64,000 bases of DNA from Candidatus Poseidoniales archaeon. Lineage in GTDB: Archaea; Thermoplasmatota; Poseidoniia; Poseidoniales; Poseidoniaceae. Below the pieces are notes generated by a model. It had not been told where the DNA came from. It ran no database searches and was given only the letters and a program-made list of their open reading frames with translations. Position 1 is the stretch's first letter; every line of letters begins with the position of its first letter. The position numbers and the translations under genes were made by a program. The stretch spans positions 286 through 64,285 of the forward strand of contig QQRW01000018.1 of the NCBI GenBank assembly GCA_003602605.1. Direction: 5' to 3'. Positions 1 through 57,048 of this stretch are shown here, in pieces.

Positions 1-7
1 TGAGCAT

Positions 8-478: not shown

Positions 479-489
479 GACATCGCCGG

Positions 490-1080
490 GTGAAGAGTTA
501 TACTGAGAGTTCGCAGGGGTTCAATGTGGACGATTTCGCTGATCTTGAAGAGGAATTGCAACCTGTAGCGTCTCAGATTTTACATTCGGACATTGTTGAA
601 TTAATCAAGAATATAGAATCGGATGAAGAAACGAATGGGTTCAAATTTACGCCTTATGAAATCATCTGGACACCAGCATCAAGTATAGGCTGTTTAGTAC
701 TTGGAATCGTTTTGACTCCGCTGCTTATCGGGGTATTTTGGCTTTGGATATTTTTTACCCAGAGGCCCAACGTCCCTATTTCGGAGACTTCCTATTTTTA
801 TGAGTGCCAATATTATATTGCTGAACATCATTCAATCCTTGAATACGAAATATTGAACGGAATCTTAGATGTGACAAGTTGTAAGGTTCATCCAATTGCT
901 GCTGGGTCATACATCGGTTATGAGAGGGTGTCTATGGGTGACAATGGTAATTCACGGGCCAAGTATACTGTTCGAACTCCTTCAAATTTCGTTCAATTAA
1001 CAATGAAAGAGTCGGTGAAATCTTCTGAAGTCTCTCGCTTTTCCAAATTTTCTGGTTTAGAAATCAATACGATTTCGTAA
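490..1080 (+). CDS. hypothetical membrane-associated protein
   Basis: 196-aa ORF with acidic N-terminus and one strong hydrophobic segment (LVLGIVLTPLLIGVFWLWIFF). Confidence 0.3.
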   Translation: MKSYTESSQGFNVDDFADLEEELQPVASQILHSDIVELIKNIESDEETNGFKFTPYEIIWTPASSIGCLVLGIVLTPLLIGVFWLWIFFTQRPNVPISETSYFYECQYYIAEHHSILEYEILNGILDVTSCKVHPIAAGSYIGYERVSMGDNGNSRAKYTVRTPSNFVQLTMKESVKSSEVSRFSKFSGLEINTIS

Positions 1081-1294
1081 AGTCAAATCCAAATTTCGAG
1101 GTGTACTCTCCACACACATGCATAGTTTTTAAAAATCAAAATGCTGGAATTTCGGTTGCGGAAAGTAACATTATATCCGATTCAAGATTCATCCGACGAG
1201 TACTCAAGTCAATACAGCGTGATTGTGCTGAAAAAAACGAAAACGAGGGTTTCTTTTATTGCCCCTCGACTCGTGGATTTACTGAGGGATACCA

Positions 1295-1555
1295 ATGGTC
1301 GAGGGCGAAGGTTCAGTATCCCGTCTTACTGGCCTTGAGGTCTATCTCCCAGATGGCCGCAGATTGGGTATTGTCCATGATGCCGTGGTCGATGCCAATG
1401 GATTGAACTGTACGCATTTGTTTGTCCGTGATACTGAAGAGGAACTGGTCGAAGGTTCGGTTCACGTCGCAGTCCCTTGGAGATGGGTTCGAGCCATTGA
1501 CAGAATCGTCTTGCTGCGTTGGTTCCCGCAAACGCCCATACCTCTCCAAAGCTGA
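1295..1555 (+). CDS. PRC-barrel-like small protein
   Basis: 86 aa; 'VYLPDGRRLGIVHDAVVD...' resembles archaeal PRC-barrel domain proteins. Confidence 0.35.
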   Translation: MVEGEGSVSRLTGLEVYLPDGRRLGIVHDAVVDANGLNCTHLFVRDTEEELVEGSVHVAVPWRWVRAIDRIVLLRWFPQTPIPLQS

Positions 1556-1564
1556 GTTGATTTC

Positions 1565-2695
1565 ATGAGTATGGAAATACATATTCTCGGCACCTCATCT
1601 GCACGGCCTACGAGAAAAAGACAGGTCAGTGGAAGTTTGATCCATTGCGACGAGGGGATCGTCGTCATCGATGCTGGTGAAGGCTTCCAAACACGATATG
1701 CAGAACAACGTAAGCGTCTCAAGAACTTCGAAAAAGGTACAACATTGCGAGCATCGAAAATTAACGCCGTTTGCCTCACACACGGCCACCTTGACCACAC
1801 ATGGGGGCTCCTACCCTGGATGCATACGATGGCTTTGGATAAACGGGAGACACCTCTTCTTGTCCTTGGCCCAACTTCAAAGGAAGTTTTCGATTCTCTC
1901 TTGCTCGCAAATGAAATACCGGAATCCGCCTCGAATGCAGAACTGGCACGACAGATGCGTATTTGGCAATCGCTTGGTGCTACGACAGCAGATTTGGGTT
2001 ATCCTGTTCGATGGATTCTTGGGGATGTAGCGGGCGACCGCTGGCTCGAACTGATTCCGGGGCGACAGCCCGTGCAAGTCAAGGAAATGCCTCAGCCGCA
2101 TGGTTGGAAGAAAACCAGAATTCAACCGGTCATTACTCGGCATACCGTTCCATCGTGTGGATGGATGGTTGAGTCCAAAGGCAGTCCGGGAAAATTCAAT
2201 CGGTTGAAGGCAGCTGAAATGAAACTGACAGATGCACAAAAGACACACCTTTCTTCTGGCGAAGACCTCGAGTTGCCCGATGGAACAGTTCTGAAAGCAC
2301 TTGATTTCCGCGGAAAGCGTCGGCCTTCGACCCGCCTCGTAATTTCGGGTGATACTGCAGAGATGGCTGAAGGGTTCACATTACTCGACGGTGTTGATGT
2401 TCTGGTTCACGAAGCGACGTTTCTGGACGACGCACAACAATGGGCAGATGAGTTCCTTCACTGCACCAGTACTGGTGCGGTCAGAACTGCAGCAGTATGC
2501 TCAGCACGGCACCTTGTTTTGACCCATTTCAGTGCGCGCCTCAAAGAGGCTTCCGTATCGCTCAATGAGGCGATGGACGAAGCTTCGGCTTCCGATTTGT
2601 CCGTGACTTCAGCGTCTGATGGTGACCGAGTCGTCATTCGTGAGAACGGAGAAATCCATCATTTGGTATGGCGCAACGACGGCTGGTCCTCTTGA
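1565..2695 (+). CDS. rnz: metallo-beta-lactamase fold ribonuclease, RNase Z-like
   Basis: N-terminal 'ILGTSSARPT...IVVIDAGEG' and 'HGHLDHTWGL' (HxHxDH) motif typical of tRNase Z / MBL fold; longer than short-form RNase Z (insertion). Confidence 0.55.
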   Translation: MSMEIHILGTSSARPTRKRQVSGSLIHCDEGIVVIDAGEGFQTRYAEQRKRLKNFEKGTTLRASKINAVCLTHGHLDHTWGLLPWMHTMALDKRETPLLVLGPTSKEVFDSLLLANEIPESASNAELARQMRIWQSLGATTADLGYPVRWILGDVAGDRWLELIPGRQPVQVKEMPQPHGWKKTRIQPVITRHTVPSCGWMVESKGSPGKFNRLKAAEMKLTDAQKTHLSSGEDLELPDGTVLKALDFRGKRRPSTRLVISGDTAEMAEGFTLLDGVDVLVHEATFLDDAQQWADEFLHCTSTGAVRTAAVCSARHLVLTHFSARLKEASVSLNEAMDEASASDLSVTSASDGDRVVIRENGEIHHLVWRNDGWSS

Positions 2696-2740
2696 GCAAA
2701 CGGCCACATCATTGAAGTGGATAACGGCCTACAGCGGTAT

Positions 2741-5215
2741 ATGCGTTCAACCGTCTTTGTCGCGCTTCTCCTCTGCACAATGCTGCTTCCAGTCACTGCG
2801 ATAGCGACTGAAGGCCGTGAGCAGCCAAATTGCTTGAACGATACTCCTGATGCATTCTCTAGCGCCACAGTTATCGGTGACGGCGCCTGCATCAAAATCA
2901 ACCTCGGTGTATTGACTCCCGGTGATGTTTACGATCTCTCCATCATTGTAAGCCAAGACGCTCTTGATGTTCTCGTGTTCGATCAGAATTCAGTGCAACC
3001 GTATGATTTAGGCCAATCGTATCGCTCTTCATACGAACAAGTACCTTCGACTGAATCTGCTCTCGGCAGTTTCGAGTTTCACTGGAAAGTTCCTCCTTCC
3101 ATCACTTCCAAATCTTGGTACATTGTTTTCGATAACACTGCTCATTCTGGAGACCAAGGCATGGGCGACCAGGGTGGCGCTGACAGTCGTGCCAGTTTGA
3201 CCATTTCCAAAATTACAGAATCGTATTGGACACCCTTCCATGATGTCATCGGTATGCAAAGTGATTCCTACAAAAATCTACTTTCAGGAGACGATTTCCG
3301 ACTTGATGCGGGGACCACAGTCGTCGTTTCGGCTTGGTCATTGGAAGGCAACGGTGATGTCTATCTTCAGACTCAAGGGATGAATGATTTGTACACCTCG
3401 GGTGGTGTTGGTTCTTTGTTCATTACCGGTGCTGGACTACGCTCAGTCGACGGCTCCGACTCTTTTTCTTGGGTTGTTCCAAACGAATTGGACGGAGAGC
3501 CACTTTTCCTCATCGCTGACAACACAGATACACCGGTTGGAGGGGGTGATGGAACTTCTCCAGTCCGAATGACTGTGCGCATAGAATTCGCCCCACTGCT
3601 CAGTCCCGTCATCAACGACGATTCAAATGGAACGACCATCATTGGCAGGGCAGTTTCACTTGACGCAATGGCGACTCCAAATCGGCTTGAACAAGTTGCA
3701 TCAGCATCTTGGGACTTCGATGCTGATTTCGATTCCAACGGAGACGGTGACAAAGTCAACGACGCTGATGCTTCAGGTTGGCAAGCCCTTGCCATTTGGA
3801 CAACCCCTGGAGATCGAACTGTGACGCTTACCGTCACATCTCCAACCGGCGAAGTCGCCACAACCTCTTCGATAATCTCAGTGACCGATGTCGTAGATCC
3901 CGTTGCACGAATCGGTGGTAATGGACAACCCATCAGCGGTGGCTGGAAACTGGTAACTGACCAATCGATTGCTCTCAATTGCGATGGCAGTACCGATGAT
4001 GACCAAGTGAGCACCTGCTCATGGAACCTCGATGGAACTCCATACGGGCAAAACAATTCCATCACACTCTCTTGGAGCGATATTGGCTTGCATACAGTGA
4101 CACTGACGGTCACTGACCCATCCGGAAACAGCAACACCATTTCGACGCTGATCAGGGTGACCGATACCACTCTACCCGTTCTTGACCAGACCTCTCTTGA
4201 TTTACTTCCGTCATCTGGTTTGATTGATGATACGATAAAGTGCAGTGCCTCAGCCAAAGACTCCTACGACTCAAGTGCAGTACTGCGTTACCATTGGGAT
4301 ACAAATCCAAACATTGACTCCGACGGCAACGGTAATGCTCGAGATGATGCAGATTTGAGTGGTTCGACTGCAGAAATTGTTTTTGCAAAGGCGGGAAGTT
4401 ATGATGTTGTTCTCACCGTTTTCGATCAGTCCAATAATTCCGACAGCCATGCCTTCACGATTACCGTTGAAAACGCAGATGAAAAAGGGACCATCGCTGG
4501 AATTTTGATGGTGGTCTTGTTTATTGGGGCAATCACCATGGGCGTTGCTTTGGTTGGTCATCGTCGCTGGCAAAAAGGAATTGCAATGCAACTTCTTCTT
4601 GATCGAGGTTTGAGTTCCGCAGAGGCAAAAGCCCACATGTCAAACGTTTCGAGCACACGAAAACTTCCTCTATTTTCGTCTGCAATTGCACTTGCAGGAT
4701 TGGAAAGCAACGACTCTGTGCAATCAACATCTTCGAAAGCCGAAGACGCAAAGGCTGCTGAAATGGCAGCAATTTACGGAACTGAACCGTCCGTTGCACC
4801 AACTTCGCAAGGCGCTTTCGCCCCTCCAACATTCGCTTCTCGAACCGTTTCAGCCGGTAGTCAAGCAGCAGCCGCAGATGCCATGGCCTTGTTTAACGAC
4901 GATTCGCCTGCACCATCGATACAACCTGTCCTACAAACGCCCCCCCCTCAAACACTCAATGAACTCACGCCCACAGCACCGATTCAAACCGTTGTTCAAA
5001 GCGGCGGTATTTCATTGCCCGACGGTGTCTTGAAACCAGCTAACGCCACACCGCCTCAACCGACTCCAGTGCCCGAACAAGTATCGCAGCCTGTGCAGAC
5101 ACGGGTCACGTGCAGCGCGTGTTCTGCAGTCTTTGCAATACAGATGCCCGTCGGTGTCAATAAAGTGGTCGTTGCTTGCCCTTCATGTTCGAAGGATTCA
5201 ACCGTTGAGTTATGA
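2741..5215 (+). CDS. secreted PKD-repeat surface protein with single TM and C-terminal cytoplasmic zinc ribbon
   Basis: Signal peptide (MRSTVFVALLLCTMLLPVTAIA); repeated 'TVTLTVTxPxG...VTD' PKD-like modules; TM (IAGILMVVLFIGAITMGVALVG) then Pro/Ala/Gln-rich linker and C-x2-C-x17-C-x2-C at extreme C-terminus. ORF track starts at 2717; internal Met at 2741 gives a cleaner signal peptide. Confidence 0.7.
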   Translation: MRSTVFVALLLCTMLLPVTAIATEGREQPNCLNDTPDAFSSATVIGDGACIKINLGVLTPGDVYDLSIIVSQDALDVLVFDQNSVQPYDLGQSYRSSYEQVPSTESALGSFEFHWKVPPSITSKSWYIVFDNTAHSGDQGMGDQGGADSRASLTISKITESYWTPFHDVIGMQSDSYKNLLSGDDFRLDAGTTVVVSAWSLEGNGDVYLQTQGMNDLYTSGGVGSLFITGAGLRSVDGSDSFSWVVPNELDGEPLFLIADNTDTPVGGGDGTSPVRMTVRIEFAPLLSPVINDDSNGTTIIGRAVSLDAMATPNRLEQVASASWDFDADFDSNGDGDKVNDADASGWQALAIWTTPGDRTVTLTVTSPTGEVATTSSIISVTDVVDPVARIGGNGQPISGGWKLVTDQSIALNCDGSTDDDQVSTCSWNLDGTPYGQNNSITLSWSDIGLHTVTLTVTDPSGNSNTISTLIRVTDTTLPVLDQTSLDLLPSSGLIDDTIKCSASAKDSYDSSAVLRYHWDTNPNIDSDGNGNARDDADLSGSTAEIVFAKAGSYDVVLTVFDQSNNSDSHAFTITVENADEKGTIAGILMVVLFIGAITMGVALVGHRRWQKGIAMQLLLDRGLSSAEAKAHMSNVSSTRKLPLFSSAIALAGLESNDSVQSTSSKAEDAKAAEMAAIYGTEPSVAPTSQGAFAPPTFASRTVSAGSQAAAADAMALFNDDSPAPSIQPVLQTPPPQTLNELTPTAPIQTVVQSGGISLPDGVLKPANATPPQPTPVPEQVSQPVQTRVTCSACSAVFAIQMPVGVNKVVVACPSCSKDSTVEL

Positions 5216-5363
5216 ACCGCCCGTAGGGCGAACTTGAGAACCCTTGAAAATCCGTCCATGAAAGGGATGGGTTCTCATAGTGGTAATTCTTGAGTGCATC
5301 ATGGTAGAGGGCCAACCGCGTTTGATTCGAGTTGGTCTGCCTCAGGCATCAGACCCCCGTCGA

Positions 5364-8300
5364 ATGGCTGTAGCCATGGTCATCTTGATGTTCATATCGA
5401 TGGCTCAACCCGCAGGTGCAGACTTGTCGGTTTCAAGAAATGACTTTGGCGTGCTGGATGAATTGGACGAGACGCTTTCAAAGAGAACCGCTAACGGAGA
5501 AGCCATTGTAGCTGCAGAAGGAGCAGCTGACGCTCTGAATGCGGTTGACCTTGCTCAACGCCCAGTTGATGCCACTGATCCACTTTCTCAGGCGAGCTCT
5601 TACCTTGACAGTTTGGAACTCCGAGACGCTTCACCGTTTGAAGCGGACCATCCTCGACCGTATGAGTTTCTAATGGACGCTTCTACTCAACCTGACGGTT
5701 GGCCTTACAATTTGTTCGAAACTTTGTTTTCAGTACAATCACTCGGTCTTGACAACATTCTCGGCATTGGAATCAATACGTATGCAGTGTACGTTAATTT
5801 CACTTCAAGAGATAACGGTCCATCACATGAAGCATGGGTTGAGGGCACTTTTACTGGTGAACTTTTGGTTGGAACAGATCTTGTTTTGTTCAACAATTAC
5901 ATCGATATTGACGGCGATTCAGTCGATGATTTATCGGTCGGACTAACCATTCAAGGCATCATAACCCAAGGCGATGGATTTGGAATTGAGCTTGGCGATT
6001 GTGAGTTAACACCGAGCCCTGGCCCGGGCATACCCCCAGTTACCGTACCGTGTGTGGAAGAATTGTGGGTGCGCCCGACCTTCCAATGGAAAGTTACTGC
6101 GCTTAACCAGAACGATTTCTTGTGGAACAACATGTCGCACCTTGAAGTCAGCTTGATGAAAGGTCTAGCTTTCGATTTAACGCTTGACGACTCGGAATCA
6201 TATGCCATTGTCATCGACACACGATTTACTCAACCTCCTCACGAATTTACACTTGGAGTTGGTCTACAGAAAATGGCATTCAATGTGAATGCGGTTATCA
6301 CCAATACTGCTGGTTTCATCACTTCACTGTTTAACGGCGGCATCAATGCATCGTCGCTAAGTCTGACATCCATTTCTGCTCCTTACGCCATCCGAGTCTC
6401 AAATCCTGATTCCGACAGTTCGGACCGTCAATCCGACTGCGATGATGGCACTGGTTACTATGACCCGTTCACCGATCATAAAACTGAAAGCCATTTGCAT
6501 AAATGTGGATTTGGTCTCGGTGTTGGCTTCATTCGATTTGATGGGTACGGTGGAGGAACGACTGCTCCGATTTTGGAAACCGCATACATCGATGTAGGTT
6601 TCCACCCTGAAGAAGGTGAAACACGAATCCCTAACGAAGTTGACATCACTCTTCGCAACGATAATCTCGGTGCGAACACATTTGATACTGTAGAAATCTT
6701 TTCCGATTACGGCTCAGACATGTACTTCCACTATTTCGAAGACCGTTCGAATACTACGGAGGGTGATTCACCTTTCGGAAACACAACGGATTCTCGAACC
6801 TGGATTCGAGGCCTCCCCTCGGGAACACTTCACCCCGATGAAATCAATGCTATTTTTACCATGATTGGTGAGGCCCCAGGAAGCGCAAATTTACCCGGAG
6901 AAATTCCGAGCCGTCTTTCAATGATGATTGCGATAAAGAACTTCTCAGGCGACAACACCAACAACGTTAACGATCCAACTTTGCCGGTAAATCCTGCTGC
7001 ACCTCCAAACACGCTTGTTGCCATTGTAGCGACCGAATCAATCGATCTTTTGGACTACAAATCGACCTTCAAACGTGGGGGGTATGATGCTGACTCATCT
7101 TCCATTCAACTGAGCATAGCAAATGTTCCCAAAGTCATCATTGTTGAGGGCAGTTTTCAAATCCCCGAAAGCGGCTTGAGTCGAGTATCCTACGATAACC
7201 CCAACCTCAACACGGTTGCTCAGATTTTCGACAATGCCTTACTGACCGTGATTGAAGTTATTCTGGATGTTGGAGATGTTGTCAACGGTCTACCTGAATC
7301 GATTGTCGGAACGGCTGGTTCTTCTGGGGGAGCGGTACGAATGAACTGCTACAACCAAGTCCGATTGAGCCTACCTGCCTCGACGCGCAGTCCGATGGAA
7401 ATTGGTTCAGTTTCGATTGCAATCTCGAGCAGTGACCAACCTTGGTTGCCTGACATCGACCATATTCTACTGTCAGAGGACACCAATATCCAAACTGTAA
7501 ACGGCCGCCTTGGTGTTCAAGAGCCACTTGTTCCCGTTGCAATGAGCGCTCGAATTGGAGGCATATCGAGCGTCAGCCATGATTACGACCCGATTAACGA
7601 TGTTCGACAAATGGAATTACGAGGAATTAACGGAGGACCCCTTTTGATCGGTCACCTGTTACACGATGACGGAGATTTGACCACTGCCAATCAACAGTCT
7701 GCTACGCTCTCAAACCGCCCCAGCACGTTCAATGTTACTCAAACTGCGGAAGCCCTTACCTACACAGCTTCTGCTCCAATTGGAACCATCACTTACGGAG
7801 GTAACGGAGATGGCCAGCGAAACGCAATACGCTTGAACGGTCTTCCCTCTTCGTTCCAACTTATTTTGGGCGATACTGTCGGTTATGTCGCAGCAACCCC
7901 AATGGAATCGATTGAAGTTCAACTCACGAACTCGACTCAACCGCTGACAATGGACGGCGACCACTTCCGATTCTGGGTGAACGAGACCTCTGGTGAAGCA
8001 AGCCTCAGTACCGCAATTTCAGATGTTACGAGCCTGCGTCGCCTTTCCCCCTTAGATCCTGGTTCGAAAGGGCCTGAAGGGAACTCGCGCATCGAACTTA
8101 TCCGCGCCAACTCCGCTCCAATGAATGTCTTGATGGAAGACGACACCGTCTACGAAGATTCCTTCAAGGGAATGAACGGGCGTGTGGCGATCGACCCGCT
8201 TCCAGCAAACATCACTATTGCTTATCCAAGTGGGGTCGATTCAGGCGGACTTGAATTGCCTACTTTTGACGAAGGCGACGGCGTTCAAGCCCTGTCGTTC

Positions 8301-30407: not shown

Positions 30408-31109
30408 TTGGGTCGACGTTATGAAGAAAAAGTGGATGTAGAAGAGCTTGCTCGACTCGAAAATCCAGAAGACGCGTCAGGCGGTAAAATCCGTGTCAAG
30501 ATGCCGAACCGTAAAATCAACGAAATGTTTGCATTTGCTGAACAGATCCTAGGTGGTCGACGTGTTACTGTTCTCTGTGAAGACGGTGAAACCCGTATGG
30601 CTCGAATCCCCGGTAAGATGCGCCGCCGTCAGTGGGTCCGTGATGGGGACCTCATCATTGTCTGGCCTTGGGATTTCCAAGACTCCAAAGCAGATGTAAA
30701 GCACCGTTACACCAAAACTCAAGCAATGTACCTTTCACGCAAAGGCGTTCTCCCGAAGGAGTTGGATTTCTTTGGTATGAATACATCAAACGATGATGAC
30801 GATGATGAATTCTCTGACACCTTCGGTACGATGGATGAGCCTGAAGAACAAGAAACCGATGATTTGTTTGGTTCTGATGACGACGATGATGACGATGATT
30901 TGTTTGGTTCTGATGATGACGATGACGATGATTTGTTCGGCTCAGACGACGATGACGATGATGACGATGATTTGTTTGGTTCCGATGATACAGAGGAAGA
31001 AGCACCGGCTGAAGAAGTTCCACACATCCCTGTTGAAGAATATCCCGCAGAAGACGATGACGACGATGACGATGACGATGACGAGGACCTCGAAGCCTTG
31101 TTTGGTTGA
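30408..31109 (+). CDS. eif1a: translation initiation factor aIF-1A with extended poly-Asp repeat C-terminal tail
   Basis: N-terminal about 110 aa match the eIF-1A OB-fold ('KIRVKMPNRKINEMFAFAEQILGGRRVTVLCEDGETRMARIPGKMRRRQWVRDGDLIIV'). This is followed by four or more 'DDLFGSDDDDDDD' repeats and a terminal 'DLEALFG'. Confidence 0.8.
   Translation: MGRRYEEKVDVEELARLENPEDASGGKIRVKMPNRKINEMFAFAEQILGGRRVTVLCEDGETRMARIPGKMRRRQWVRDGDLIIVWPWDFQDSKADVKHRYTKTQAMYLSRKGVLPKELDFFGMNTSNDDDDDEFSDTFGTMDEPEEQETDDLFGSDDDDDDDDLFGSDDDDDDDLFGSDDDDDDDDDLFGSDDTEEEAPAEEVPHIPVEEYPAEDDDDDDDDDDEDLEALFG
30857..30990 (+). repeat. in-frame tandem repeat (about 39-bp unit, about 3.5 copies) encoding DDLFGSDDDDDDD
   Basis: 'gatgatttgtttggttctgatgatgacgatgacgatgat' recurs with minor variation at 30860, 30899, 30935 and 30968. 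Confidence 0.8.
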
Positions 31110-46591: not shown

Positions 46592-46861
46592 ATCGCCGAC
46601 GTTTTTTTTTCTGTGCAGGGGGACCCATCCTTGAGGTGCCTATTGGATGGGTGTTGGATGGGTTACAATTTTTCAATGCCTCTTCATGGAATGAATATGG
46701 ATGGTAAACAGTTTTTTTCAATCTCACAACGACTTTCCAACCTTGCTGGCCAAGTCCATTTAATTTAGATTGAAAATCGGAATCAACTATCGATAGCAGT
46801 GAGGCTTTCAGCCTTGCCCGTCGGGTCAACCTTCTTATGGGACGAGGTGTGGGAAGTCGCC

Positions 46862-49800
46862 ATGAAGGTACAGACCCTCCTACTGACTTTGATGCTGTTG
46901 CTCTCCGGATGCCTCGGCATGGCCGATGAAGACATTGAAATCGACAAGAACGATATGTTCCCAGATGATGATGCAGCGTACTACGATACCGATGGTGATG
47001 GATTACCAGACCAACTTGATGGTGAATCAACGTCCACACCCCCGCTCGTCGCAGACACGGACGACGATAACGATGGTTTCCTAGACACGATGGAAACCAC
47101 TTGTGGCACAGATCCACTCAACGCAACCTCCTTCCCGGAGGATCTTGATGGGGACTTCGAATGTGACGAGTACGATTTTGATATTGATGGTGACACCGTA
47201 ATCAACGACGCTGATGCCTTCCCTCGAGATGCCAGCGCATCTACCGACACTGACGGCGATGGCATGCCTGACACACTCACCGGGGAATCTACCCTCATTG
47301 AAGATCTCGACGACGATAACGATGGCTGGTCAGACCTCGATGAAACAGCGTGTGGTAGCAACTCATTGGTTGCAAGCCTCATGCCAGTTGATGCAAACGG
47401 AGACGGCATCTGTGATGCAGTTTCGACTGACGACGATGCTGACACCTACTCCGATGACGAAGAGACACAGTGTGGATCAGACCCACTCGATGCAGCAAGC
47501 ATTCCTGCTGACCTTGACAACGACACAATTTGTGACGCATTGGACGATGACATGGACGGCGACGGCACACCCAATGCCCAAGACATGTACCCACGTGACC
47601 CAAGCAAGCACGAAGACGTCCCAGGTTGCACCGACACCGCCTCATTCAACTTTGATGCCGATGCAAACCTCGATGATGGAACGTGCGTTGACGCAGAAGA
47701 TGTCTTCGGCATGATGCTGAATTTCGTGGAGAACGAAACATGGCACAGTTTCGATTCCTCTAGCGAGGACTTTGACGGTGATGGAGCTGTTGATTTCATC
47801 ATGAGTATGCTCATGATTTCCGCACCGGCACAAGATTCAGTGCTCATGAATCAAGTGATTTCTAATCCTGATGGTGAAGAGATGCTCAACATCACCTACC
47901 TATACTCGAGTGGAACGATTCAACTGGACCAATATGTTGTTGTGGAAGAAGATGAGGACAGTGGCGAACAACTCACCATGAACGATCAAGTCCTCATCCA
48001 CCACCAATACATGGCTAATCCTTTCATAGAGGCTCCAGAATGGATGCATTGCGAGCAACTTCCTGACAACACATGGCTTTGTTCCGATTCGGATTATTTT
48101 ACTGAAGGCAACCCCGACAGCGCCACAGAAACGCTCCACCAGTACACATGCGCCGATGGAACAACCATCATGAGCAGCGAGGTCAATGACGGAACTGAAG
48201 ACTGCGCTGATGGTTCTGACGAACCACAATTCACAGAAACCTACTCTTACACCTGCTTGAGCGGCGAAACAATCGGCCTCATGCACGTTAACGACGGAGA
48301 CGAAGACTGTGCTGATGGGTCAGACGAGGCCAAAATATTCCAATGCGCTGATGGTTCCTATGTGTACTTTGCAGTAGCAAACAACGGTGGCGCTGACTGC
48401 AACGATGATTCGGACGAACCTGCATATAATGTTACTGAACTCTCAACCTATGATTGCGCGGACGGCAGTCAAATTTACCTCTCACAGGTCAACGACGGCG
48501 TTGAAGATTGCCTGGATGCAGATGATGAACCCACTTACGAAGATACTGAACAGACTTACTTTGATTGTGACGACGGAATCTCATACATTTACCTCTCACA
48601 AGTCAACGATGGTACCGAAGACTGTGCAGATGGTGAAGACGAAGCAACCTTTGACGAAGATGGTGAAGAAACATCTACCTTCGAATGTGAATACACTGGA
48701 GATATCATACCATTGTCATATGTCAACGATGGTGAGGAAGATTGCTATTACGGTGACGACGAGCCATTTGTTGGGGAAGAAGAGACTTCCGTCTTCGATT
48801 GCGCTGATGGTTCAGATACCATTGATCTCTCAGAAGTCAATGACGAATACCAAGACTGTGAGGACGGTTCAGACGAACCAGTCTATGATATGACAGAGAC
48901 CTCGATGTTCGACTGTGAGGATGGCAGTCAAATCTTCTTCTCACTCGCAAATGATGGTGTTGAAGATTGTGCAAACGGTGAGGATGAACCGTCTGAAGAA
49001 TACGTTGAATACACAAGCTTTGATTGCGCTAATGGTGACACTATTCCATTATCCCTCGTCAACGATGGTACTGAAGACTGCCAAAGCGGCGATGATGAAC
49101 CATCCTACGATCCAATCACAGGTTCAGAACTCACCACTTATCAATGTCCATATTCGGGAGAGTCAATCGCTCTTTCCTTGGTGAACGATGGAAGTTATGA
49201 TTGTGGAGACTATGAAGATGAACCTTATGGTGATATTGAGGAGACCTCTTTCTTCACTTGCGACAATGGCGACGAAATCGTGATGAGCTGGCTCAACGAT
49301 AATTACAATGACTGCGAAGGTGGTGAAGACGAAGCACAGTTCGACATGGGAGAAGAAATCAGTGTCTTTACGTGCGCTGACGGATCTGAAGTGTCATTCT
49401 CATTGGTGAACGATAACAACAACGACTGCGCTGACGGTGAAGATGAATACTACACCTACGAGTGTGCAGATGGTAGCGACACTATTCCGCTTCTCGCAGT
49501 TAACTTTGGATACTATTTCTGTCAGGATGATTCCGATGAATCCGATGCTGAAGAATCGAGCGAATTCACTTGCTTTGATGGAGAAACTATTCCGCTGAGT
49601 TACTACTCTGATGGTGAAGCAGACTGCTCAGATCGCTCTGATGAGATCTCTTTCGACGACGATTATACCGATTGTGTTTGGGACGCTGAGGCTGGATTCT
49701 GGGTCTGTGCCGAGACAATGCCTGAAGGCACTTGGTCAGGTGAAATGCAAGAGGATGGCGGCATGATTGTCACCATCACCGAAATCGACCCCGATTCTTT

Positions 49801-50887
49801 GGTAGAAGAGAACATGAGAGTGACAATTTCCCCTGATATGTCAGTTGTATCAATCGAAATCGAAGAAACGGTTGAGGGAGATGTTGTCATCATGTCCTAT
49901 GTTGCCGGAACCGGCGGCCATGACCTCTTGATTGACACGACCCTCGAAGAAGCCGCTCCACCGTTTGTTGTTGCCTTTGATGGGGAACCAATTCAACAGG
50001 CTACATTTGAGTGCAATGATGGAACAATCATCGATTTTGCTCTCCTCAACGATGGTGCTTATGATTGCGCTGATGAAGAAGATGAACCTGATTTTGTGGA
50101 AGAAGAAATAACTTTCTGGATGTGCGCTGATGGCGAATCTGAGATTCTCCTCTCTGCTGTTTCGAATGGAAACCCCGACTGTGATGATGGGTCTGATGAA
50201 ATTCTTACTTCAACCTTCGATTGTGATGACGGAACCTCAATCACCCTCGATAAAGTGAGTGATGAAAACATGGATTGCGTCGGCGGCGAGGATGAGCCTC
50301 AATTTGAACAGGGAGAGGACAACAATATCTTCTACTGTTATGATGGCTCAGACTCAGTACCTATGGAATGGGTCAATGACGACTGGGATGATTGTGCTGA
50401 CGGATCTGACGAAGGCCTTGGCGATGGTCACGGTTATGGCCAATACATGGTCGGAGCAATCGGTATGGCGGCTGACGATATTGTTGAATGGAACGGAGGT
50501 TCAATTACCGATGCAACAAGTGCAGACGGCATGGATCTTGTCCTATCATTGTGTGATTCATTCAAGACAATCGACGGCGAAAATGGCGAATACACCGTCG
50601 GTGAAGGCTGTGGTGACGATGTTGAGCGTTGGTCGTTTGCTGACATTGCAGCAGGCGATGTCGACGGAATTGAGTTTTATGACGCTGATGAAAGCGGTAC
50701 ACTCACCGATGGAGACATGTTCAGTATCACGGACCTTGATACCATGGAGGACTGGAACGCAGTTCGATTGGCAAAGGGTACGACCTACGCTGATGAGAAT
50801 CCTGAAGTCGTACTTCCTGGATTCACAGCAGCACTTGGTATCATCTCGATGCTCGGTGCAGCGCTGCTTGTTCGCAAGAACGAGTGA
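46862..50887 (+). CDS. extremely acidic cell-surface Ca2+-binding-repeat protein (TSP3-like N-terminal repeats plus about 25 degenerate LDL-receptor class A-like 'C-x-DGS-x-I-x-LS-x-VNDG-x-EDC-x-DGSDE' repeats) with PGF-CTERM-like anchor
   Basis: Lipobox-like signal (MKVQTLLLTLMLLLSGCLG). 'DTDGDGLPDQLD', 'DTDDDNDGFLD' TSP3-type motifs. Periodic repeat of about 30-33 aa with the 2-Cys 'DCxDGSDE' core. C-terminal 'VLPGFTAALGIISMLGAALLVRKNE'. Confidence 0.7.
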   Translation: MKVQTLLLTLMLLLSGCLGMADEDIEIDKNDMFPDDDAAYYDTDGDGLPDQLDGESTSTPPLVADTDDDNDGFLDTMETTCGTDPLNATSFPEDLDGDFECDEYDFDIDGDTVINDADAFPRDASASTDTDGDGMPDTLTGESTLIEDLDDDNDGWSDLDETACGSNSLVASLMPVDANGDGICDAVSTDDDADTYSDDEETQCGSDPLDAASIPADLDNDTICDALDDDMDGDGTPNAQDMYPRDPSKHEDVPGCTDTASFNFDADANLDDGTCVDAEDVFGMMLNFVENETWHSFDSSSEDFDGDGAVDFIMSMLMISAPAQDSVLMNQVISNPDGEEMLNITYLYSSGTIQLDQYVVVEEDEDSGEQLTMNDQVLIHHQYMANPFIEAPEWMHCEQLPDNTWLCSDSDYFTEGNPDSATETLHQYTCADGTTIMSSEVNDGTEDCADGSDEPQFTETYSYTCLSGETIGLMHVNDGDEDCADGSDEAKIFQCADGSYVYFAVANNGGADCNDDSDEPAYNVTELSTYDCADGSQIYLSQVNDGVEDCLDADDEPTYEDTEQTYFDCDDGISYIYLSQVNDGTEDCADGEDEATFDEDGEETSTFECEYTGDIIPLSYVNDGEEDCYYGDDEPFVGEEETSVFDCADGSDTIDLSEVNDEYQDCEDGSDEPVYDMTETSMFDCEDGSQIFFSLANDGVEDCANGEDEPSEEYVEYTSFDCANGDTIPLSLVNDGTEDCQSGDDEPSYDPITGSELTTYQCPYSGESIALSLVNDGSYDCGDYEDEPYGDIEETSFFTCDNGDEIVMSWLNDNYNDCEGGEDEAQFDMGEEISVFTCADGSEVSFSLVNDNNNDCADGEDEYYTYECADGSDTIPLLAVNFGYYFCQDDSDESDAEESSEFTCFDGETIPLSYYSDGEADCSDRSDEISFDDDYTDCVWDAEAGFWVCAETMPEGTWSGEMQEDGGMIVTITEIDPDSLVEENMRVTISPDMSVVSIEIEETVEGDVVIMSYVAGTGGHDLLIDTTLEEAAPPFVVAFDGEPIQQATFECNDGTIIDFALLNDGAYDCADEEDEPDFVEEEITFWMCADGESEILLSAVSNGNPDCDDGSDEILTSTFDCDDGTSITLDKVSDENMDCVGGEDEPQFEQGEDNNIFYCYDGSDSVPMEWVNDDWDDCADGSDEGLGDGHGYGQYMVGAIGMAADDIVEWNGGSITDATSADGMDLVLSLCDSFKTIDGENGEYTVGEGCGDDVERWSFADIAAGDVDGIEFYDADESGTLTDGDMFSITDLDTMEDWNAVRLAKGTTYADENPEVVLPGFTAALGIISMLGAALLVRKNE

Positions 50888-51936: not shown

Positions 51937-53172
51937 ATGAGCACCCGCCGTCTCTTCGCCGCAGTGCGAGACCTCGATCCACCAGGAGGCGGTGCAGAGC
52001 GTTCTTTGGCGACCCTGCTGAACGGTATTTCCGTACCTGGGCCAACGCTCGAAACCGCTCCAACGTTCGTTCCCATGTCATCCGCTGCAGATGCTCCAAC
52101 GCATCCAGCGTGGACGGTGAGTGCCTTTGCAAGTCACGACAGAGGCGACCCTATCGGTTTGCTTGAACCCGAGGTGACATTTGAAACCACAGACCTTCCA
52201 CTCGAAGAATTCTGGTCGAAGGTCGCATGGGTTCTGCGAGAGCGCAAAGGCGAGCTTAGACGTAGAAAGTGGGCCCTTGACCGACACATTGCCAAGCGAA
52301 GTTCCCAATTCGCCGCAGAAGTTGGTTCATGGTTGGACAAACACGATGTAGAAGGCGGCATTGGCCTGACCCAACTTGACTGGGCACCAGGGGCCGCAGA
52401 AGCGTTTGCTTCCCGTGGAATGCCTTATGTCATGTTCGTTCGAGATGACAAGCCTTTCTTGCTCGAGGAACGCTTTCGCCCTGTAATAGAGGGCGCAGCC
52501 CTCGTGTGTGCAGCTGGGGAAGGTTTGCTGGCTGATATTGAATCACGTTTTTCCATCCAGAAAGGTCACAACGTACCATTACCAATCGACTTTACTCGAC
52601 GCTTTGGGAGCATAGAAGAGGTTAACGCCTTGCGTTTGGCTGAGCAAGCGAAGCGACCTGCTGGTTCTCCACCAACCATCGGGATTATGGGAGTGGTCCC
52701 TGAAAAGGGGCTTCGAACATCTCAACGCATCCTACCTAGGTTGCTCGAACGATGGCCCGAGGCAGAAGTTCTGATCGCAGGAGATAATACGTATTCGCAA
52801 GATCTCGCTCACCATCCAAACGCACGGATTCTAGGCTACATTGATGCAGCAGCGTTCTTCTCGAAAATCGATATCCATCTTATTCTATTTGAGAGGACAG
52901 GAACGTGGGGACGGGTCATAGGGGAAGCAGGCTTGTTCGGTGTACCAAGTGTGACTTCCGACATTGGCTCGCAAAAGGAAGCGTTGGGAGAGGGAGGCAT
53001 TCTGGTGGACGATGGTCATGATACGGATGCAGTCATTGATGCCCTGATGGCCGTGTATGAGGACCGAGAGCGCTATGGGGCACTGGCGCGCAAGCACACA
53101 CAAATGGTTGATCATCGGCGGTCTGTGGCCGCCTTCCGCACCGGGCTTGAGGATTTGTTTGAAGGCCGTTGA
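51937..53172 (+). CDS. GT4-family glycosyltransferase
   Basis: N-terminal 'PGGGAERSLATL'; C-terminal 'GRVIGEAGLFGVPSVTSDIGSQKEALGEGGILV' GT4 signature. Confidence 0.7.
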   Translation: MSTRRLFAAVRDLDPPGGGAERSLATLLNGISVPGPTLETAPTFVPMSSAADAPTHPAWTVSAFASHDRGDPIGLLEPEVTFETTDLPLEEFWSKVAWVLRERKGELRRRKWALDRHIAKRSSQFAAEVGSWLDKHDVEGGIGLTQLDWAPGAAEAFASRGMPYVMFVRDDKPFLLEERFRPVIEGAALVCAAGEGLLADIESRFSIQKGHNVPLPIDFTRRFGSIEEVNALRLAEQAKRPAGSPPTIGIMGVVPEKGLRTSQRILPRLLERWPEAEVLIAGDNTYSQDLAHHPNARILGYIDAAAFFSKIDIHLILFERTGTWGRVIGEAGLFGVPSVTSDIGSQKEALGEGGILVDDGHDTDAVIDALMAVYEDRERYGALARKHTQMVDHRRSVAAFRTGLEDLFEGR

Positions 53173-53385
53173 GTCCAGTCTGCTTGAAGGACCCTACACT
53201 CACCCACTGAGCCAGCTAAGGTTTGGAGTGAGCAGCGGGCAACATGAGCGCCCAGCTCAGTGAGGCTCCAGTGTACCGTGTTAGGTAGAAATGATTTGGG
53301 CCATAGTAAGGGAACGTTCTTGAGCAAAAGGGTTGTCCCCGTAATATCAGGTAATGGTTATACCAGTGTCTGTTGAGGTTTTTGA

Positions 53386-54030
53386 ATGATAAATCGGATT
53401 CGGCAAATGCTATTTAGAATGCGTCATAAAAACAGCCCTTTCCCGGGGTCTTCTGAATATTGGGACCGCCGTTACCGTAGTGGAGGTACTTCGGGGGATG
53501 GTTCGTACGGCGGTTTGGCGGATTTCAAGGCCGAAATAATCAACGTATTTGTCGAGGAAAACGGTATTGATACTGTAGTCGAATTAGGTTGTGGTGATGG
53601 GAACCAACTTGGATTGATGGATGTCCCACAGTATACTGGTTATGATATTTCTAAAAAAGCTGTAGAGATGTGTGCAAAAAAGTACTCGGCTGATTCTTCA
53701 AAGAAATTTATTCACTATTTACCCAACCAATACGATGGTGAGGCGAAAGCGCAACTTTCACTCTCATTGGATATCATTTACCACTTAGTCGAGGATGTAG
53801 TATTTGAAACGTATATGCACCATTTATTCCAGTTAGCCAGTGATTGGGTCATTGTCTATTCCAGTAACTCGGAGGATCCGGAAGCAGAAGGGATTGAACA
53901 CTGTAGGAATCGAAAGTTCGTCGATTGGGTTGGTGCAAATATTTCAGGCTGGGAACTTGTTAACAAAATCAAAAACCGCTACCCTGAACGTTCAAGATGT
54001 GATTTCTATATTTACAAAAAGTCGGCATGA
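53386..54030 (+). CDS. class I SAM-dependent methyltransferase
   Basis: 'VVELGCGDGNQLGLM' (motif I GxGxG), 'YTGYDIS' (motif II). Confidence 0.6.
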   Translation: MINRIRQMLFRMRHKNSPFPGSSEYWDRRYRSGGTSGDGSYGGLADFKAEIINVFVEENGIDTVVELGCGDGNQLGLMDVPQYTGYDISKKAVEMCAKKYSADSSKKFIHYLPNQYDGEAKAQLSLSLDIIYHLVEDVVFETYMHHLFQLASDWVIVYSSNSEDPEAEGIEHCRNRKFVDWVGANISGWELVNKIKNRYPERSRCDFYIYKKSA

Positions 54031-54053
54031 TTTAACCGGTATCCAGGCGAAGG
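53951..54053 (+). repeat. direct repeat copy 1 (about 100 bp, 3 mismatches versus copy 2), spanning the methyltransferase 3' end and stop
   Basis: 'aacaaaatcaaaaaccgctaccctgaacgttcaagatgtgatttctatatttacaaaaagtcggcatgatttaaccggtatccaggcgaagg' recurs at 55248. Confidence 0.85.
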
Positions 54054-54201
54054 CCGCTCGGCTTTTTGGTGTTCTTGCTCATCCACATTCTAAATTGCAA
54101 AACACCAAATCTGGTGTGTGTGACCAAAGTGTTATTGCCAAAATGCTGGTTATCGAAATCACACCAAAAATAAACCTTTCATTAAAAATTGAAAATGAAA
54201 T

Positions 54202-55164
54202 CTATTTGTCATTAATTAAAAGTTCATATTCCATGCCATTTTTATTATTCGGCATATCTAACTTATGAGGTAAATTGTAGTCTGTTGAAACATTTGAGTG
54301 TTTGGAAAAAGTTACCTCCAATACAAGGGGCAAATCATCATCTTCGCGTAATGGACGGAAATTATTAGCATGAACATGAACTAAATTTAAACTCAATTCA
54401 TTTATGAACTTTTCAATTTTGTTAAGATGTATATCAACATCATGAAACTCAAGCACTAAGCCAGTAATTCTCTCTTCATTAGCGACAATGTCATGCAAGA
54501 TCCGATATTCAGATCCTTCTATATCAATTTTCAAAAAAATATTGTTACTTTCAGTTTGATTTAAAACATCCATAAAAGTGCAGTACTGCTCACTTTTAAT
54601 ATTCGAGCCTACAAATTTTTGGAGATGATTAACATTTGGTTGAGTTTTAATATCCATGCTTACAAATTTTGTGATATGATTAACATTTGATTGAGAGAAG
54701 AATTTTCTATAATTTAAGAGCACATTTAGCGAATTCAGAAAGCGTTTAAATCTATAAATCCTTAATGCAGATCCCAAGAGGCGTCTGAAGAAAATTCTTT
54801 CACTAACACTCGCATCATAAGCCTCTATGGATACTTTTTTTTGATTTAAGAAATCCTCTTCAAAACTCCAATCATCACTAATACCAAATCCTAAAAGTAA
54901 ATCTGTTTGTTCAATGTCTGATTTTGAAACGAGATATCCTCCATCATAATCCCTTCCAATTCGGACTAAATCCGTTGATTGCTTTATTGAAAAGAAATGT
55001 GGTAGTCGTGCTTTCATAATGTTATGGACAGGAGGAGGGGCAATAAGTGTTTTTGAATGGTTGATAATATCTGTTGCTAAGGGCAGACGCTGGGAAAAAG
55101 TCCCATGTTCCTTCTTTAGTAAGGGGTTATCCGAAACCCCTTTGCATTTTATATCCCGATACAT
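54202..55164 (-). CDS. FkbM-family methyltransferase
   Basis: 'FLKIDIEGSEYRILHDI' (FkbM 'DIEGxE' signature); low GC; lies between the two direct repeats. Confidence 0.6.
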   Translation of the reverse strand: MYRDIKCKGVSDNPLLKKEHGTFSQRLPLATDIINHSKTLIAPPPVHNIMKARLPHFFSIKQSTDLVRIGRDYDGGYLVSKSDIEQTDLLLGFGISDDWSFEEDFLNQKKVSIEAYDASVSERIFFRRLLGSALRIYRFKRFLNSLNVLLNYRKFFSQSNVNHITKFVSMDIKTQPNVNHLQKFVGSNIKSEQYCTFMDVLNQTESNNIFLKIDIEGSEYRILHDIVANEERITGLVLEFHDVDIHLNKIEKFINELSLNLVHVHANNFRPLREDDDLPLVLEVTFSKHSNVSTDYNLPHKLDMPNNKNGMEYELLINDK

Positions 55165-55247
55165 GGGGATTCAGTGGGTCGATACAGACGCTCCCCTCTG
55201 CTTGACCCATCTTGAAGGCGCAGGGTTATGATGGAGGCTATCTCGTT

Positions 55248-55342
55248 TAACAAAATCAAAAACCGCTACCCTGAACGTTCAAGATCTGATTTCTATATTT
55301 ACAAAAAGTCGGCATCATTTAACCGGCATCCAGGCGAAGGTC
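55248..55342 (+). repeat. direct repeat copy 2
   Basis: Near-identical to 53951-54053; encodes a pseudo-ORF fragment 'NKIKNRYPERSRSDFYIYKKSA'. Confidence 0.85.
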
Positions 55343-55353
55343 CAACCTACCGT

Positions 55354-56250
55354 TTACCCTTGCTCAAGAAGACGTTCTTGTTCTGCGAGCAGAGCATAGG
55401 TGCTGGGAAGGAAGGTCTGGCGAAGTTGCACATCGTTTTGTTGTTCAGAAACATTGGTCTTATGCAGGGCTTGTTCTTGGCTCCCAGGTATATTGTCAAA
55501 TTCAATGCTTTCCTCTGCTACTAAACCAATACCAACGCCGTGTTCAATGGATTGAAATGTGAGCCAAATGTCATCGGCTCGGGGACATGTTTCCCTAAAT
55601 CCATCTCCTGCCTTCCGCATTATCTCAAGGAAATTCGGGGGAAACAATACTCCTGAGACACACGTGGCAAAATTCAGATGACTCGGTCCTTTAATTCCGG
55701 GTGGCCACGAATTATAGGGGGCGAGCCCTTTCTTGTCATCACTGAGAACTATTCTGTGTGCTCGATGTGCCATGACTGAAGTTGGTTCACGTTGTGCTGC
55801 TTCAAGGATGCGTTCCAGCCACCAATTTGGATAGAATATATCGTCGTCGGCAACAATATGTGGGCGAGAAAAATCTGGAGCGTTTTGAATCCACCACTGT
55901 ATCTTCGTATGCGGACCGAGATTTTCAGCCAGATGGATTTCCAAACCTCGTTTCATCAGCCGTTTCAAGGCCTTAGTTGGATGCAATACATCTTTCTCTA
56001 CATCTAAATAAAGCATGAATCTTGAGGGGAGAACCGTCCCCTTAGCAATTGTCTCGATGGCGATGTGGGCAGTTTTCAAGCGTTGCCCGTAGGTTGTCAT
56101 TGAGACAGTGGGGCCTTCTGGATGAAGGATGGAGGAAGAAGTGAAACGGTTTCTCAATCCGAGACGAAATGCTCTCAACGGCAGCAGAATCCTCTTTAGA
56201 TGATTTCGGAGGTAGGATTTCACATTGGGAACTCTCATGCACTTTACCAA
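55354..56250 (-). CDS. putative glycosyltransferase (DxD-type)
   Basis: 'PHIVADDDIFYPNWW' DxD-like motif; no closer assignment possible by eye. Confidence 0.4.
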   Translation of the reverse strand: MVKCMRVPNVKSYLRNHLKRILLPLRAFRLGLRNRFTSSSILHPEGPTVSMTTYGQRLKTAHIAIETIAKGTVLPSRFMLYLDVEKDVLHPTKALKRLMKRGLEIHLAENLGPHTKIQWWIQNAPDFSRPHIVADDDIFYPNWWLERILEAAQREPTSVMAHRAHRIVLSDDKKGLAPYNSWPPGIKGPSHLNFATCVSGVLFPPNFLEIMRKAGDGFRETCPRADDIWLTFQSIEHGVGIGLVAEESIEFDNIPGSQEQALHKTNVSEQQNDVQLRQTFLPSTYALLAEQERLLEQG

Positions 56251-56368
56251 CGTTGTTGATTCAAAGGGCTAATTCGCGTATTCTTATACCTTTCCCAGCA
56301 CTGGTGCTACCGAAGAAAACGATACACTGCAGTTCACATCATGAGGCCAGTATCTGTTCTGGATCTTC

Positions 56369-56929
56369 TTACACTCCGAGAACAGTGACAAATCTTTGAA
56401 CAGTATCTTGAAATTTTTTCCTCCACCCCTTTTCTTTGGAGTTTTTATGGAATACTGTGATTTCAAGTTCCCAATCTTCACCCCACAAAGTGCTACCTTG
56501 AATCCATATCCCACTTGAACCTCCCGAACCTTTTCCATCGCCGGTATCTTCGGCGATATTCATTTTCACCTTCTTCACTTCGGACAATTTGTGTTCAAAG
56601 GTTTGATCGATTTTGCCAAAGAGCGTGGAACGAAGTTCCAATGTGTCACGGCCTTTATCGATTTGAATCACATAAATGCGTAACAGTCCACGTTGAGTTC
56701 TGAAAATGAGGTAGGGTATGACGGCGTAAAACGGCCCAATACAGATGGTGCCTAAAATGCCAAGAACCATTTCTCGTCTCCCAGTTTGAATCACATCCGT
56801 AAGTGATGTCAAAGGGAGCACGATGGAAAATACCAATAGAGGAATAAGGAAAATGGAAATGAATACTTTTTCATGAAAAGGATACTCTCCTTTTTCTTGA
56901 TATTGAGCAGCATGGGTTTCTTGTTCCAC
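56369..56929 (-). CDS. hypothetical 3-TM membrane protein
   Basis: 186-aa ORF with three hydrophobic helices N-terminal and a soluble Gly-rich C-terminal region. Confidence 0.35.
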   Translation of the reverse strand: MEQETHAAQYQEKGEYPFHEKVFISIFLIPLLVFSIVLPLTSLTDVIQTGRREMVLGILGTICIGPFYAVIPYLIFRTQRGLLRIYVIQIDKGRDTLELRSTLFGKIDQTFEHKLSEVKKVKMNIAEDTGDGKGSGGSSGIWIQGSTLWGEDWELEITVFHKNSKEKGWRKKFQDTVQRFVTVLGV

Positions 56930-57048
56930 AATTGAACTCGCGCGATTCTATTTTTAATCTATACCCCTGCGTATTGGTCTCGCTGCACAACAGAACAGAG
57001 AGAACTTCTGAGCGGAGTATTCATGGGTGGGTTTTTGCTGGCACTGCT

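Follow-up and report, generated by a model that had tools for sequence, protein, structure and literature searches.

An FkbM-like gene between two copies of a methyltransferase 3′ end in a variable glycosylation locus of Marine Group II archaea

The repeat, the insert and their distribution

The stretch of DNA considered here, 64,000 nucleotides (nt) from a Marine Group II (Poseidoniaceae) archaeon (Candidatus Poseidoniales; assembly GCA_003602605.1, contig QQRW01000018.1, forward-strand positions 286 to 64,285; hereafter the window), contains a locus in which the 3′ end of one gene occurs twice. The gene, MT, is predicted to encode a class I S-adenosylmethionine (SAM)-dependent methyltransferase. 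The two copies of its 3′ end, R1 on the left and R2 on the right, flank an insert with an FkbM-like methyltransferase gene, beyond which lies U298, a gene pointing toward MT (Table 1). A repeat search of the window returned R1 and R2 as a pair of 94 nt, 97% identical with 3 mismatches, at a spacing of 1287 nt; a 94-mer query allowing up to 3 mismatches found these two sites only, and none in 100 dinucleotide shuffles; and a self-BLAST of the whole window made the pair the sole long dispersed repeat of the 64 kb (E = 3e-38). The direct repeat that a first-pass annotation of this DNA had described, with three mismatches and the copies 1.3 kb apart, is therefore real and does lie at the 3′ end of MT, although its edges had been placed 1–9 nt off and it comprises the last 71 nt of MT plus 23 nt downstream rather than about 80 plus 25.

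The annotation had further described the interval between the copies as AT-richer and as encoding a single reverse-oriented FkbM methyltransferase, and this account agrees with what we find. The insert (54054–55246, 1193 nt) holds one gene only, on the minus strand, and GC content drops to 29–31% across 54200–54950, compared with 45–55% on both sides (31.2% in the FkbM coding sequence, CDS, vs. 47.9% in the window). Profile scores for the encoded protein stay below threshold, at 17.8–18.3 bits against a cut-off of 22.7 for PF05050 (E = 0.003–0.004) and 21.7 against 37.7 for TIGR01444 (E = 2e-4), and the match covers only the C-terminal part of the family profile. The homologues, however, argue for the predicted assignment: across 84% of its length the protein shares 54% identity with a Ruegeria entry that RefSeq names “FkbM family methyltransferase”, the homologues P0141, P0143 and P0211 have precomputed PF05050 matches, and the motifs are invariant across the FkbM alignment.

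Homologues of MT and hits to genomes assign the window to the Marine Group II Euryarchaeota, family Poseidoniaceae. Contigs of the same population were gathered by exact-protein look-ups and a metagenome scan; they and the other collected loci are denoted by L numbers below. The order R1–insert–R2 occurs in 15 distinct sequences (the window counted) from many samples and several assembly sources, and four further partial contigs are consistent with it. The spacing is 1287 or 1288 nt except in L076, which is 51 nt shorter, and in L054, whose scaffold holds a run of N; the extra 20 nt of L054 were considered as an indel (insertion or deletion) and proved to be that run. A mis-assembly, the artefact that the first-pass annotation had named as a possible refutation, is ruled out by the structure shared among these 15 independent sequences. 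The arrangement is nearly fixed in the species, and the event that produced it is old enough for that.

The sequences of the two copies preserve part of their history. In five strains (L048, L049, L051, L056 and L076) the repeat is 97 nt, 3 nt longer than in the window, with TCC following R1 as it follows R2, so the duplication originally spanned 97 nt. In L076, R1 and R2 differ at one base of the 97, and copies of that length with a single mismatch indicate that the two began identical. A serine codon in R1 has changed to TGT (Cys) or GCT (Ala), depending on the strain, and R2 retains the TCT of all other lineages. At the other two variable sites, R2 of L004 and L076 keeps TGA and T, and R2 of the remaining strains reads TCA and C. 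These base states place the duplication before the diversification of the sampled population, and both copies have drifted since. Gene conversion from R1 was considered for the R2 of L004 (C, G, T) and dropped because L076 makes an ancestral R2 state the simpler account.

Has R2 been retained because it does something? A minus-strand co-transcript of U298 and FkbM would carry 94 nt antisense to the 3′ end of MT mRNA and might thereby couple expression of the genes, an idea compatible with any of the histories weighed below. R2 is kept in all 15 full-length copies, and U298 and FkbM are co-directional and lie ~90–125 nt apart in L062. Yet R2 varies as its neighbours do (2 of 94 sites vs. ~2% across the insert), it has lost its stop codon to mutation and changed at one further base, and it has no notable secondary structure (z = +0.97); an Rfam scan of 53000–57000 at E ≤ 1 gave no match. 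We regard a regulatory role of this kind as very improbable.

The annotation had also proposed looking for strains that lack the insert, and one of the 16 informative population sequences does: the short contig L037 (1026 nt, with single-nucleotide polymorphisms, SNPs, of its own) joins MT directly to the U298 flank. Its single repeat carries the derived R1 base at the first mismatch (TGT) and the derived R2 bases at the second and third (TCA and C), and is bordered on the left by the flank of R1 and on the right by that of R2. Since an ancestral empty site would read TCT, TGA and T, L037 fits a secondary deletion and not the ancestral state. Judging from these bases, in a strain resembling the window R1 and R2 probably crossed over somewhere from repeat position 40 to 70, deleting the cassette and depriving MT of its stop codon. 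No proteins resembling the open reading frame (ORF) across R2, which would betray insert-free read-through alleles of MT, are on record. L037 additionally has a 1-nt deletion within MT at L037:570–585 (GTGTGCAAAAAAG to GTGTGAAAAAAG) that shifts the frame; if the contig is accurate, its MT would be a pseudogene through both the frameshift and the lost stop.

Table 1. Features of the locus and its borders, in window coordinates
Feature	Position	Strand	Remarks
GT4 glycosyltransferase, 411 aa	51937–53172	+	Conserved left neighbour; PF13692 E = 3.6e-14, PF00534 E = 8e-9
MT, predicted class I SAM-dependent methyltransferase, 214 aa	53386–54030	+	3′ end is the duplicated target
R1	53960–54053	+	Includes the TGA stop of MT; reaches 54056 (97 nt) in other strains
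J1, left-junction filler	54054–54075		~20 nt between R1 and the FkbM module; no homologue in the other FkbM contexts; homology to L062, L067 and L077 always ends at 54076
3′ tail of the FkbM module	54076–54201	−	Non-coding, 126 nt in the window; 81–90% identical across four contexts
FkbM-like CDS, 271 aa	54202–55017	−	31% GC; starts at Met50 of the ORF listed as 320 aa (54202–55164)
In-frame tandem duplication in the FkbM gene	54594–54695	−	51 nt (17 aa); copies 84% identical
Upstream (promoter) region carried with the FkbM module	55018–55119	−	Ragged outer limit
Spacer	55120–55220		Normal GC; specific to this population; no match in the window or the collected loci
J2, right junction	55221–55258	+	Inverted FkbM copy; last 12 nt overlap the start of R2
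R2	55247–55340	+	Fragment of the MT 3′ end; stop TGA is TCA in the window; ancestral Ser codon TCT kept
U298 3′ flank	55323–55353	−	Common to L031/L032; first 18 nt inside R2, present in R1 too
U298, 298 aa as ORF	55354–56250	−	Right neighbour of the insertion; called 248 aa from 56100
U186	56369–56929	−	Conserved gene marking the right border of the variable slot; homology to L007/L029 resumes at ~56326–56331 (90–92%)

The FkbM-like module and the variable slot

Homologues of the FkbM-like protein outside the population are ~253 aa long and all start with MKARLP(N/H)FFS, which identifies Met50 as the true start and 271 aa as the length of the product; the listed 320-aa ORF is thus over-called by ~50 codons. 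The region upstream of Met50 bears strain-specific indels, the gene is called as 271, 314, 320, 350 or 352 aa across strains, and in some of them gene callers place its start within the repeat. The 51-nt tandem duplication in the gene is present in most strains of the population and absent from L076, which belongs to the same species, and from all other lineages. In L049, ~20 private SNPs are clustered within 400 nt of the gene (L049:~1290–1700, window 54499–54913), which suggests that part of the cassette was replaced by a diverged allele through homologous recombination.

The gene belongs to a module that we find in four contexts: in the window, after U298 (L062–L066), before a GT4 gene (L067–L069) and by a TFIIB gene (L077/L078). 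On the 3′ side of the gene the module ends at 54076, ~131 nt past the FkbM stop, in all four; on the 5′ side its limit is ragged, homology ending at 55077 (L062), 55098 (L077) or 55119 (L067). The copies of the tail (L062:6763–6889, L067:6834–6957 and L077:2103–2226, besides that of the window) have unrelated neighbourhoods, and a search for the ~131-nt tail next to other genes found it beside FkbM only. Consensus folding of the tail predicted pairs that lack covariation support, and the tail has no Rfam match. To the right of the module the window holds a further 127 nt (55120–55246), and the spacer within them had no match by BLASTN or TBLASTX against the window and all collected loci.

The precise, shared 3′ end could be the one feature of the locus that goes beyond the ordinary. 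One idea is that the ~1.0-kb module may be a discrete mobile cassette of the Poseidoniales, composed of the gene, a promoter of its own and, on the 3′ side, a 131-nt element setting the precise end, and moved from that end by an integrase-free mechanism with the 97-nt duplication as its footprint; we consider this possibility slim. Alternatively, the shared boundary could reflect site-specific recombination, R1 and R2 being the attL and attR attachment sites of a small integrative element or integron-like cassette whose recombinase is encoded elsewhere, and L004 does have a serine-recombinase gene ~3 kb upstream. That resolvase, however, is absent from the window and from the other strains with the same structure. 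The window lacks tRNA genes, a scan of eight neighbouring ORFs revealed no recombinase domain, and neither an integrase nor a transposase nor a tRNA lies in or beside the insert; within the insert itself, whose sole ORF is the methyltransferase, neither a transposase nor terminal inverted repeats were found, and the only inverted repeat (54919–54952/55221–55258) has one arm within the gene and not at the left end. The 94–97-nt repeat is absent from the other three locations of the module, no hairpin or covarying structure was found in repeat or tail, and the other scars in the slot described below differ in length and in the gene of which they are fragments. Taken with these observations, site-specific recombination is extremely unlikely to have built the locus. 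As for a viral carrier of the FkbM gene or its tail, a search of IMG/VR returned 36%-identical relatives only, with the tail unmatched.

Low GC content was considered as a sign of recent foreign origin and rejected. The FkbM gene has 31–35% GC in every Marine Group II lineage, on host contigs of 48–52%, so that its composition is silent on the age of this particular insertion. The nearest relatives outside the group (64% identical in amino acids) sit on a bacterial contig of 32% GC together with a TonB-dependent receptor gene. The low GC thus reflects an older transfer from low-GC marine bacteria, with the composition retained.

The insertion site lies within a slot whose contents differ among Marine Group II lineages. 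Aligned with L007, the window shows 83% identity as far as the end of MT, no homology from 54027 to 56325, and 92% identity from 56326 onward. Between these conserved flanks at least five contents occur across lineages, including a 390-aa GT4 (L007, L029, L017 and L033), the same GT4 with a U298 truncated to its N-terminal half (L028, L034 and L035), a 3′ fragment of GT4 with U298 (L031 and L032), and FkbM with R2 and U298 in the window population. Several of these arrangements carry scars. In L028 (7311–7778), as in L034 and L035, U298 is cut to its N-terminal 143–155 residues and abuts the 390-aa GT4 gene in an illegitimate junction. In L031 (1250–1624) and L032 (5753–6124) an in-frame GT4 3′ fragment of 124 codons (at least 372 nt) stands between MT and U298; the L031 fragment is 83% identical to the resident GT4 and 87% identical to the L028-type allele and, being nearer to the allele of another lineage, arrived as an import along with U298. 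Upstream of MT in L032, only the last 52 codons of the resident GT4 are left. Homologous exchange has left its mark as well: compared with L033, the window is 95–100% identical over GT4 and the intergenic region to ~53400 and falls to 86–87% exactly at the start of MT (53386–53400), a sharp homologous-recombination breakpoint.

The island therefore evolves in two ways, by replacement of alleles via homologous flanks and by illegitimate joins that leave gene fragments behind. Its genes encode a GT4, a SAM methyltransferase and the FkbM-like methyltransferase, and the same contigs hold, close by, another GT4, an epimerase and a TRM5/FkbM gene. Both this gene content and the differences among lineages bear out the suggestion of the first-pass annotation that the region is a hypervariable glycosylation island.

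Junctions and history of the insertion

What occupied the site before the cassette can be read from R1. Its last 18–21 nt (CCGGTATCCAGGCGAAGG(TCC)) are homologous to the 3′ flank of U298, as seen by comparing the window with L031, and the 31 nt past the U298 stop have homologues in L031/L032, where they follow the stop of the GT4 fragment and not that of MT. Because R1 ends in U298 flank, MT and U298 must once have been direct convergent neighbours between which the cassette entered; the ancestral distance from stop to stop was ~36 nt, and the insertion lies 10–13 nt past the U298 stop. This former adjacency, the variable slot and the insert-free contig L037 together support the view, already put forward in the annotation, that recombination at the 3′ end of MT brought in or swapped a cassette.

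The right joint of the insert is the more informative of the two. J2 is an inverted copy of the FkbM codons DYDGGYLVSKS (54919–54952), matching at 34 of 38 positions with two gaps, a score reached by none of 2000 shuffles; a separate comparison recovered the match as 36 nt at 89%, and it recurs against the FkbM genes of L062 and L077. The final 12 nt of J2 are at the same time the first 12 nt of R2, where MT (CTTGTTAACAAAATCA) and FkbM (CTCGTTTCAAAATCA) are alike by chance. J2 thus has the make-up of a microhomology junction at which a short inverted stretch was added by templated copying. At the left joint, J1 contains a 10-nt inverted match to 54160–54170.

We infer that the FkbM module entered the MT/U298 spacer in a single illegitimate, microhomology-mediated insertion that duplicated 97 nt of target and was followed by drift of the superfluous copy and occasional loss through recombination between the copies, and we consider this history probable. 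In the ancestor, MT and U298 would have been convergent, with ~36 nt between their stop codons. A module of ~1.0 kb, consisting of the FkbM-like gene, its upstream region and the 131-nt 3′ tail, would then have entered the spacer 10–13 nt past the U298 stop, and 97 nt of target, namely the last 71 nt of MT and 26 nt of spacer, would have been duplicated in the process. R1, the left copy, would have stayed the working end of MT, and R2, the right copy, would be a presumably functionless scar that is decaying. The joining is envisaged as illegitimate, involving neither a recombinase nor an att-like site. At the right junction, 26 nt of FkbM from ~270 nt away would have been copied in inverted orientation and would run into R2 via microhomology (CTyGTT..CAAAATCA), either by microhomology-mediated end joining with snap-back synthesis or by template switching during replication. 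Subsequently, R1 and R2 would have become substrates for homologous recombination able to delete the cassette. The slot scars in L031/L032 and in L028/L034/L035 indicate that illegitimate joins recur at this locus.

Could the repeats instead have arisen by homologous recombination from the outset? A circle carrying one copy of the repeat and the FkbM module might have entered the 3′ end of MT through one homologous crossover, in the manner of a Campbell-type event, and might be excised again as a circle. The topology repeat–insert–repeat is exactly the product of one such crossover, and the hybrid repeat of L037 shows a crossover between R1 and R2 to be possible; the circle so released could integrate anew elsewhere in the population. 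How the first circle came to hold the repeat beside the insert is left unexplained, however, and the inverted fragment with its microhomology would still need an illegitimate join; moreover, no circular or extrachromosomal form was found, and IMG/VR holds no close relatives. We give this scenario little credence.

Several points weigh against the single insertion that we favour. A target duplication of 97 nt far exceeds the products of transposases. One junction informs the proposed repair pathway; the left junction offers only a weak inverted match of 10 nt, with a score reached by 20 of 2000 shuffles (~1%). The spacer at 55120–55220 matched nothing in the window or the collected loci, so that the inserted piece is not simply the module seen elsewhere. 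L037 is short and its MT is frameshifted, and it could be an assembly chimera if the R1 of its strain had been converted to R2 sequence. Finally, L062–L066 have U298 and FkbM adjacent, in the same order and orientation, an arrangement that would allow the pair to predate R2.

The last point leads to an import in two steps. In this scenario a recipient with MT next to FkbM took up DNA from a strain with MT next to U298; the right end was anchored by homology in U186/FadB, the left end joined illegitimately inside the donor MT, and R2 would be a piece of the donor gene. The scar in L031/L032 looks alike, with its in-frame GT4 fragment that came with U298 from another lineage; the flanks of the slot differ in history, as seen in their 83% (left) and 92% (right) identity to L007 and in the break at the start of MT relative to L033; and the U298–FkbM adjacency does exist elsewhere. 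On the other hand, R1 already contains the 18–21 nt of U298 flank, identical to those of R2 in L076, so the recipient would itself have derived from an MT/U298 junction, at the cost of an extra event; and since the L076 copies differ at 1 of 97 nt, the donor would have to be nearly identical to the recipient. We judge the two-step import unlikely, and the single insertion into the MT/U298 spacer remains our preferred reading.

Neighbouring genes and relation to known systems

Pfam matches of MT are weak only (Methyltransf_25/11/12/23); it has 1777 homologues, many of them with PF13489, PF08241 or PF08242, and the nearest named ones are from marine group II/III euryarchaeotes. U298 is possibly a glycosyltransferase of the GT-A type, as hinted by a faint match to PF00535 (E = 0.084) over its VADDDIF stretch; a search for relatives of solved structure found none. 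The gene adjoins FkbM in L062–L066 and is convergent with GT4 in L067–L068.

Further features were seen at some distance from the insert. A predicted surface protein of 1362 aa (46799–50887) has many Cys/Asp-rich repeats of the CADGSDE-like type, a C-terminal hydrophobic segment and a weak precomputed Pfam match to the LDL-receptor class A domain, and is 1339, 1357 or 1362 aa long by strain. In L004 (Ga0206677_10003433, positions 1–7480) its position is occupied by a block with a serine recombinase (PF00239), a UvrD-like helicase, a PD-(D/E)XK nuclease and an N6/N4 DNA methyltransferase, which may represent either an element that integrated there or a defence island. A tandem repeat of two ~64-nt units, 87.5% identical, lies at 30857–30989 and was seen in the self-BLAST only.

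Marine Group II archaea are abundant and uncultured, so that change in their surface-gene islands can be read only from scars such as this one; to our knowledge, there is no experimental system for these archaea. The record at this locus is unusually complete, comprising the ancestral junction, the duplicated target, a putatively templated microhomology junction, the state in the population and a probable revertant. It points to single glycosylation genes being shuffled by illegitimate joins without dedicated recombinases, with homologous recombination then working on the repeats and flanks that result.

Among known systems, the closest in setting are the replacement-type flexible genomic islands (glycotype or O-antigen-like) of marine prokaryotes, described in Alteromonas (PMC4898812) and Pelagibacterales (PMC11898729). 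Like them, the locus has a fixed position between conserved genes and glycosylation content (GT4, methyltransferases and an epimerase), related lineages differ in the genes of the slot, and alleles are swapped by homologous recombination with breakpoints at gene borders. Unlike them, it undergoes single-gene shuffling of four modules (GT4, MT, FkbM and U298) rather than replacement of a whole cluster, its content is near-fixed within the species (15 sequences with the insert vs. 1 without), and its host is an archaeon.

At the level of the junctions, the parallels lie with repair. Homology-facilitated illegitimate recombination and microhomology-mediated insertion are known from natural transformation in Acinetobacter and Streptococcus, and synthesis-dependent microhomology-mediated end joining (MMEJ) and microhomology-mediated break-induced replication (MMBIR) have been modelled. 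The locus shares with these processes an apparently recombinase-free join, a scar made of a gene fragment, junctional microhomology and a short inverted insertion templated from nearby; it differs from typical repair footprints in its 97-nt duplication, which is longer, and in offering only one convincing junction. Direct repeats that flank an insert, and excision made possible by recombination between them, also recall the target-site duplications of transposons and the att repeats of integrative elements; here, in contrast, the repeat consists of 94–97 nt of host gene sequence, and terminal inverted repeats, a transposase, an integrase and a tRNA target are all lacking. Our analysis thus serves as useful documentation of a known process and leaves current views of flexible genomic islands unchanged: the locus belongs to the well-described flexible glycosylation islands, bears a clear scar of the repair type, and does not constitute a new kind of element.

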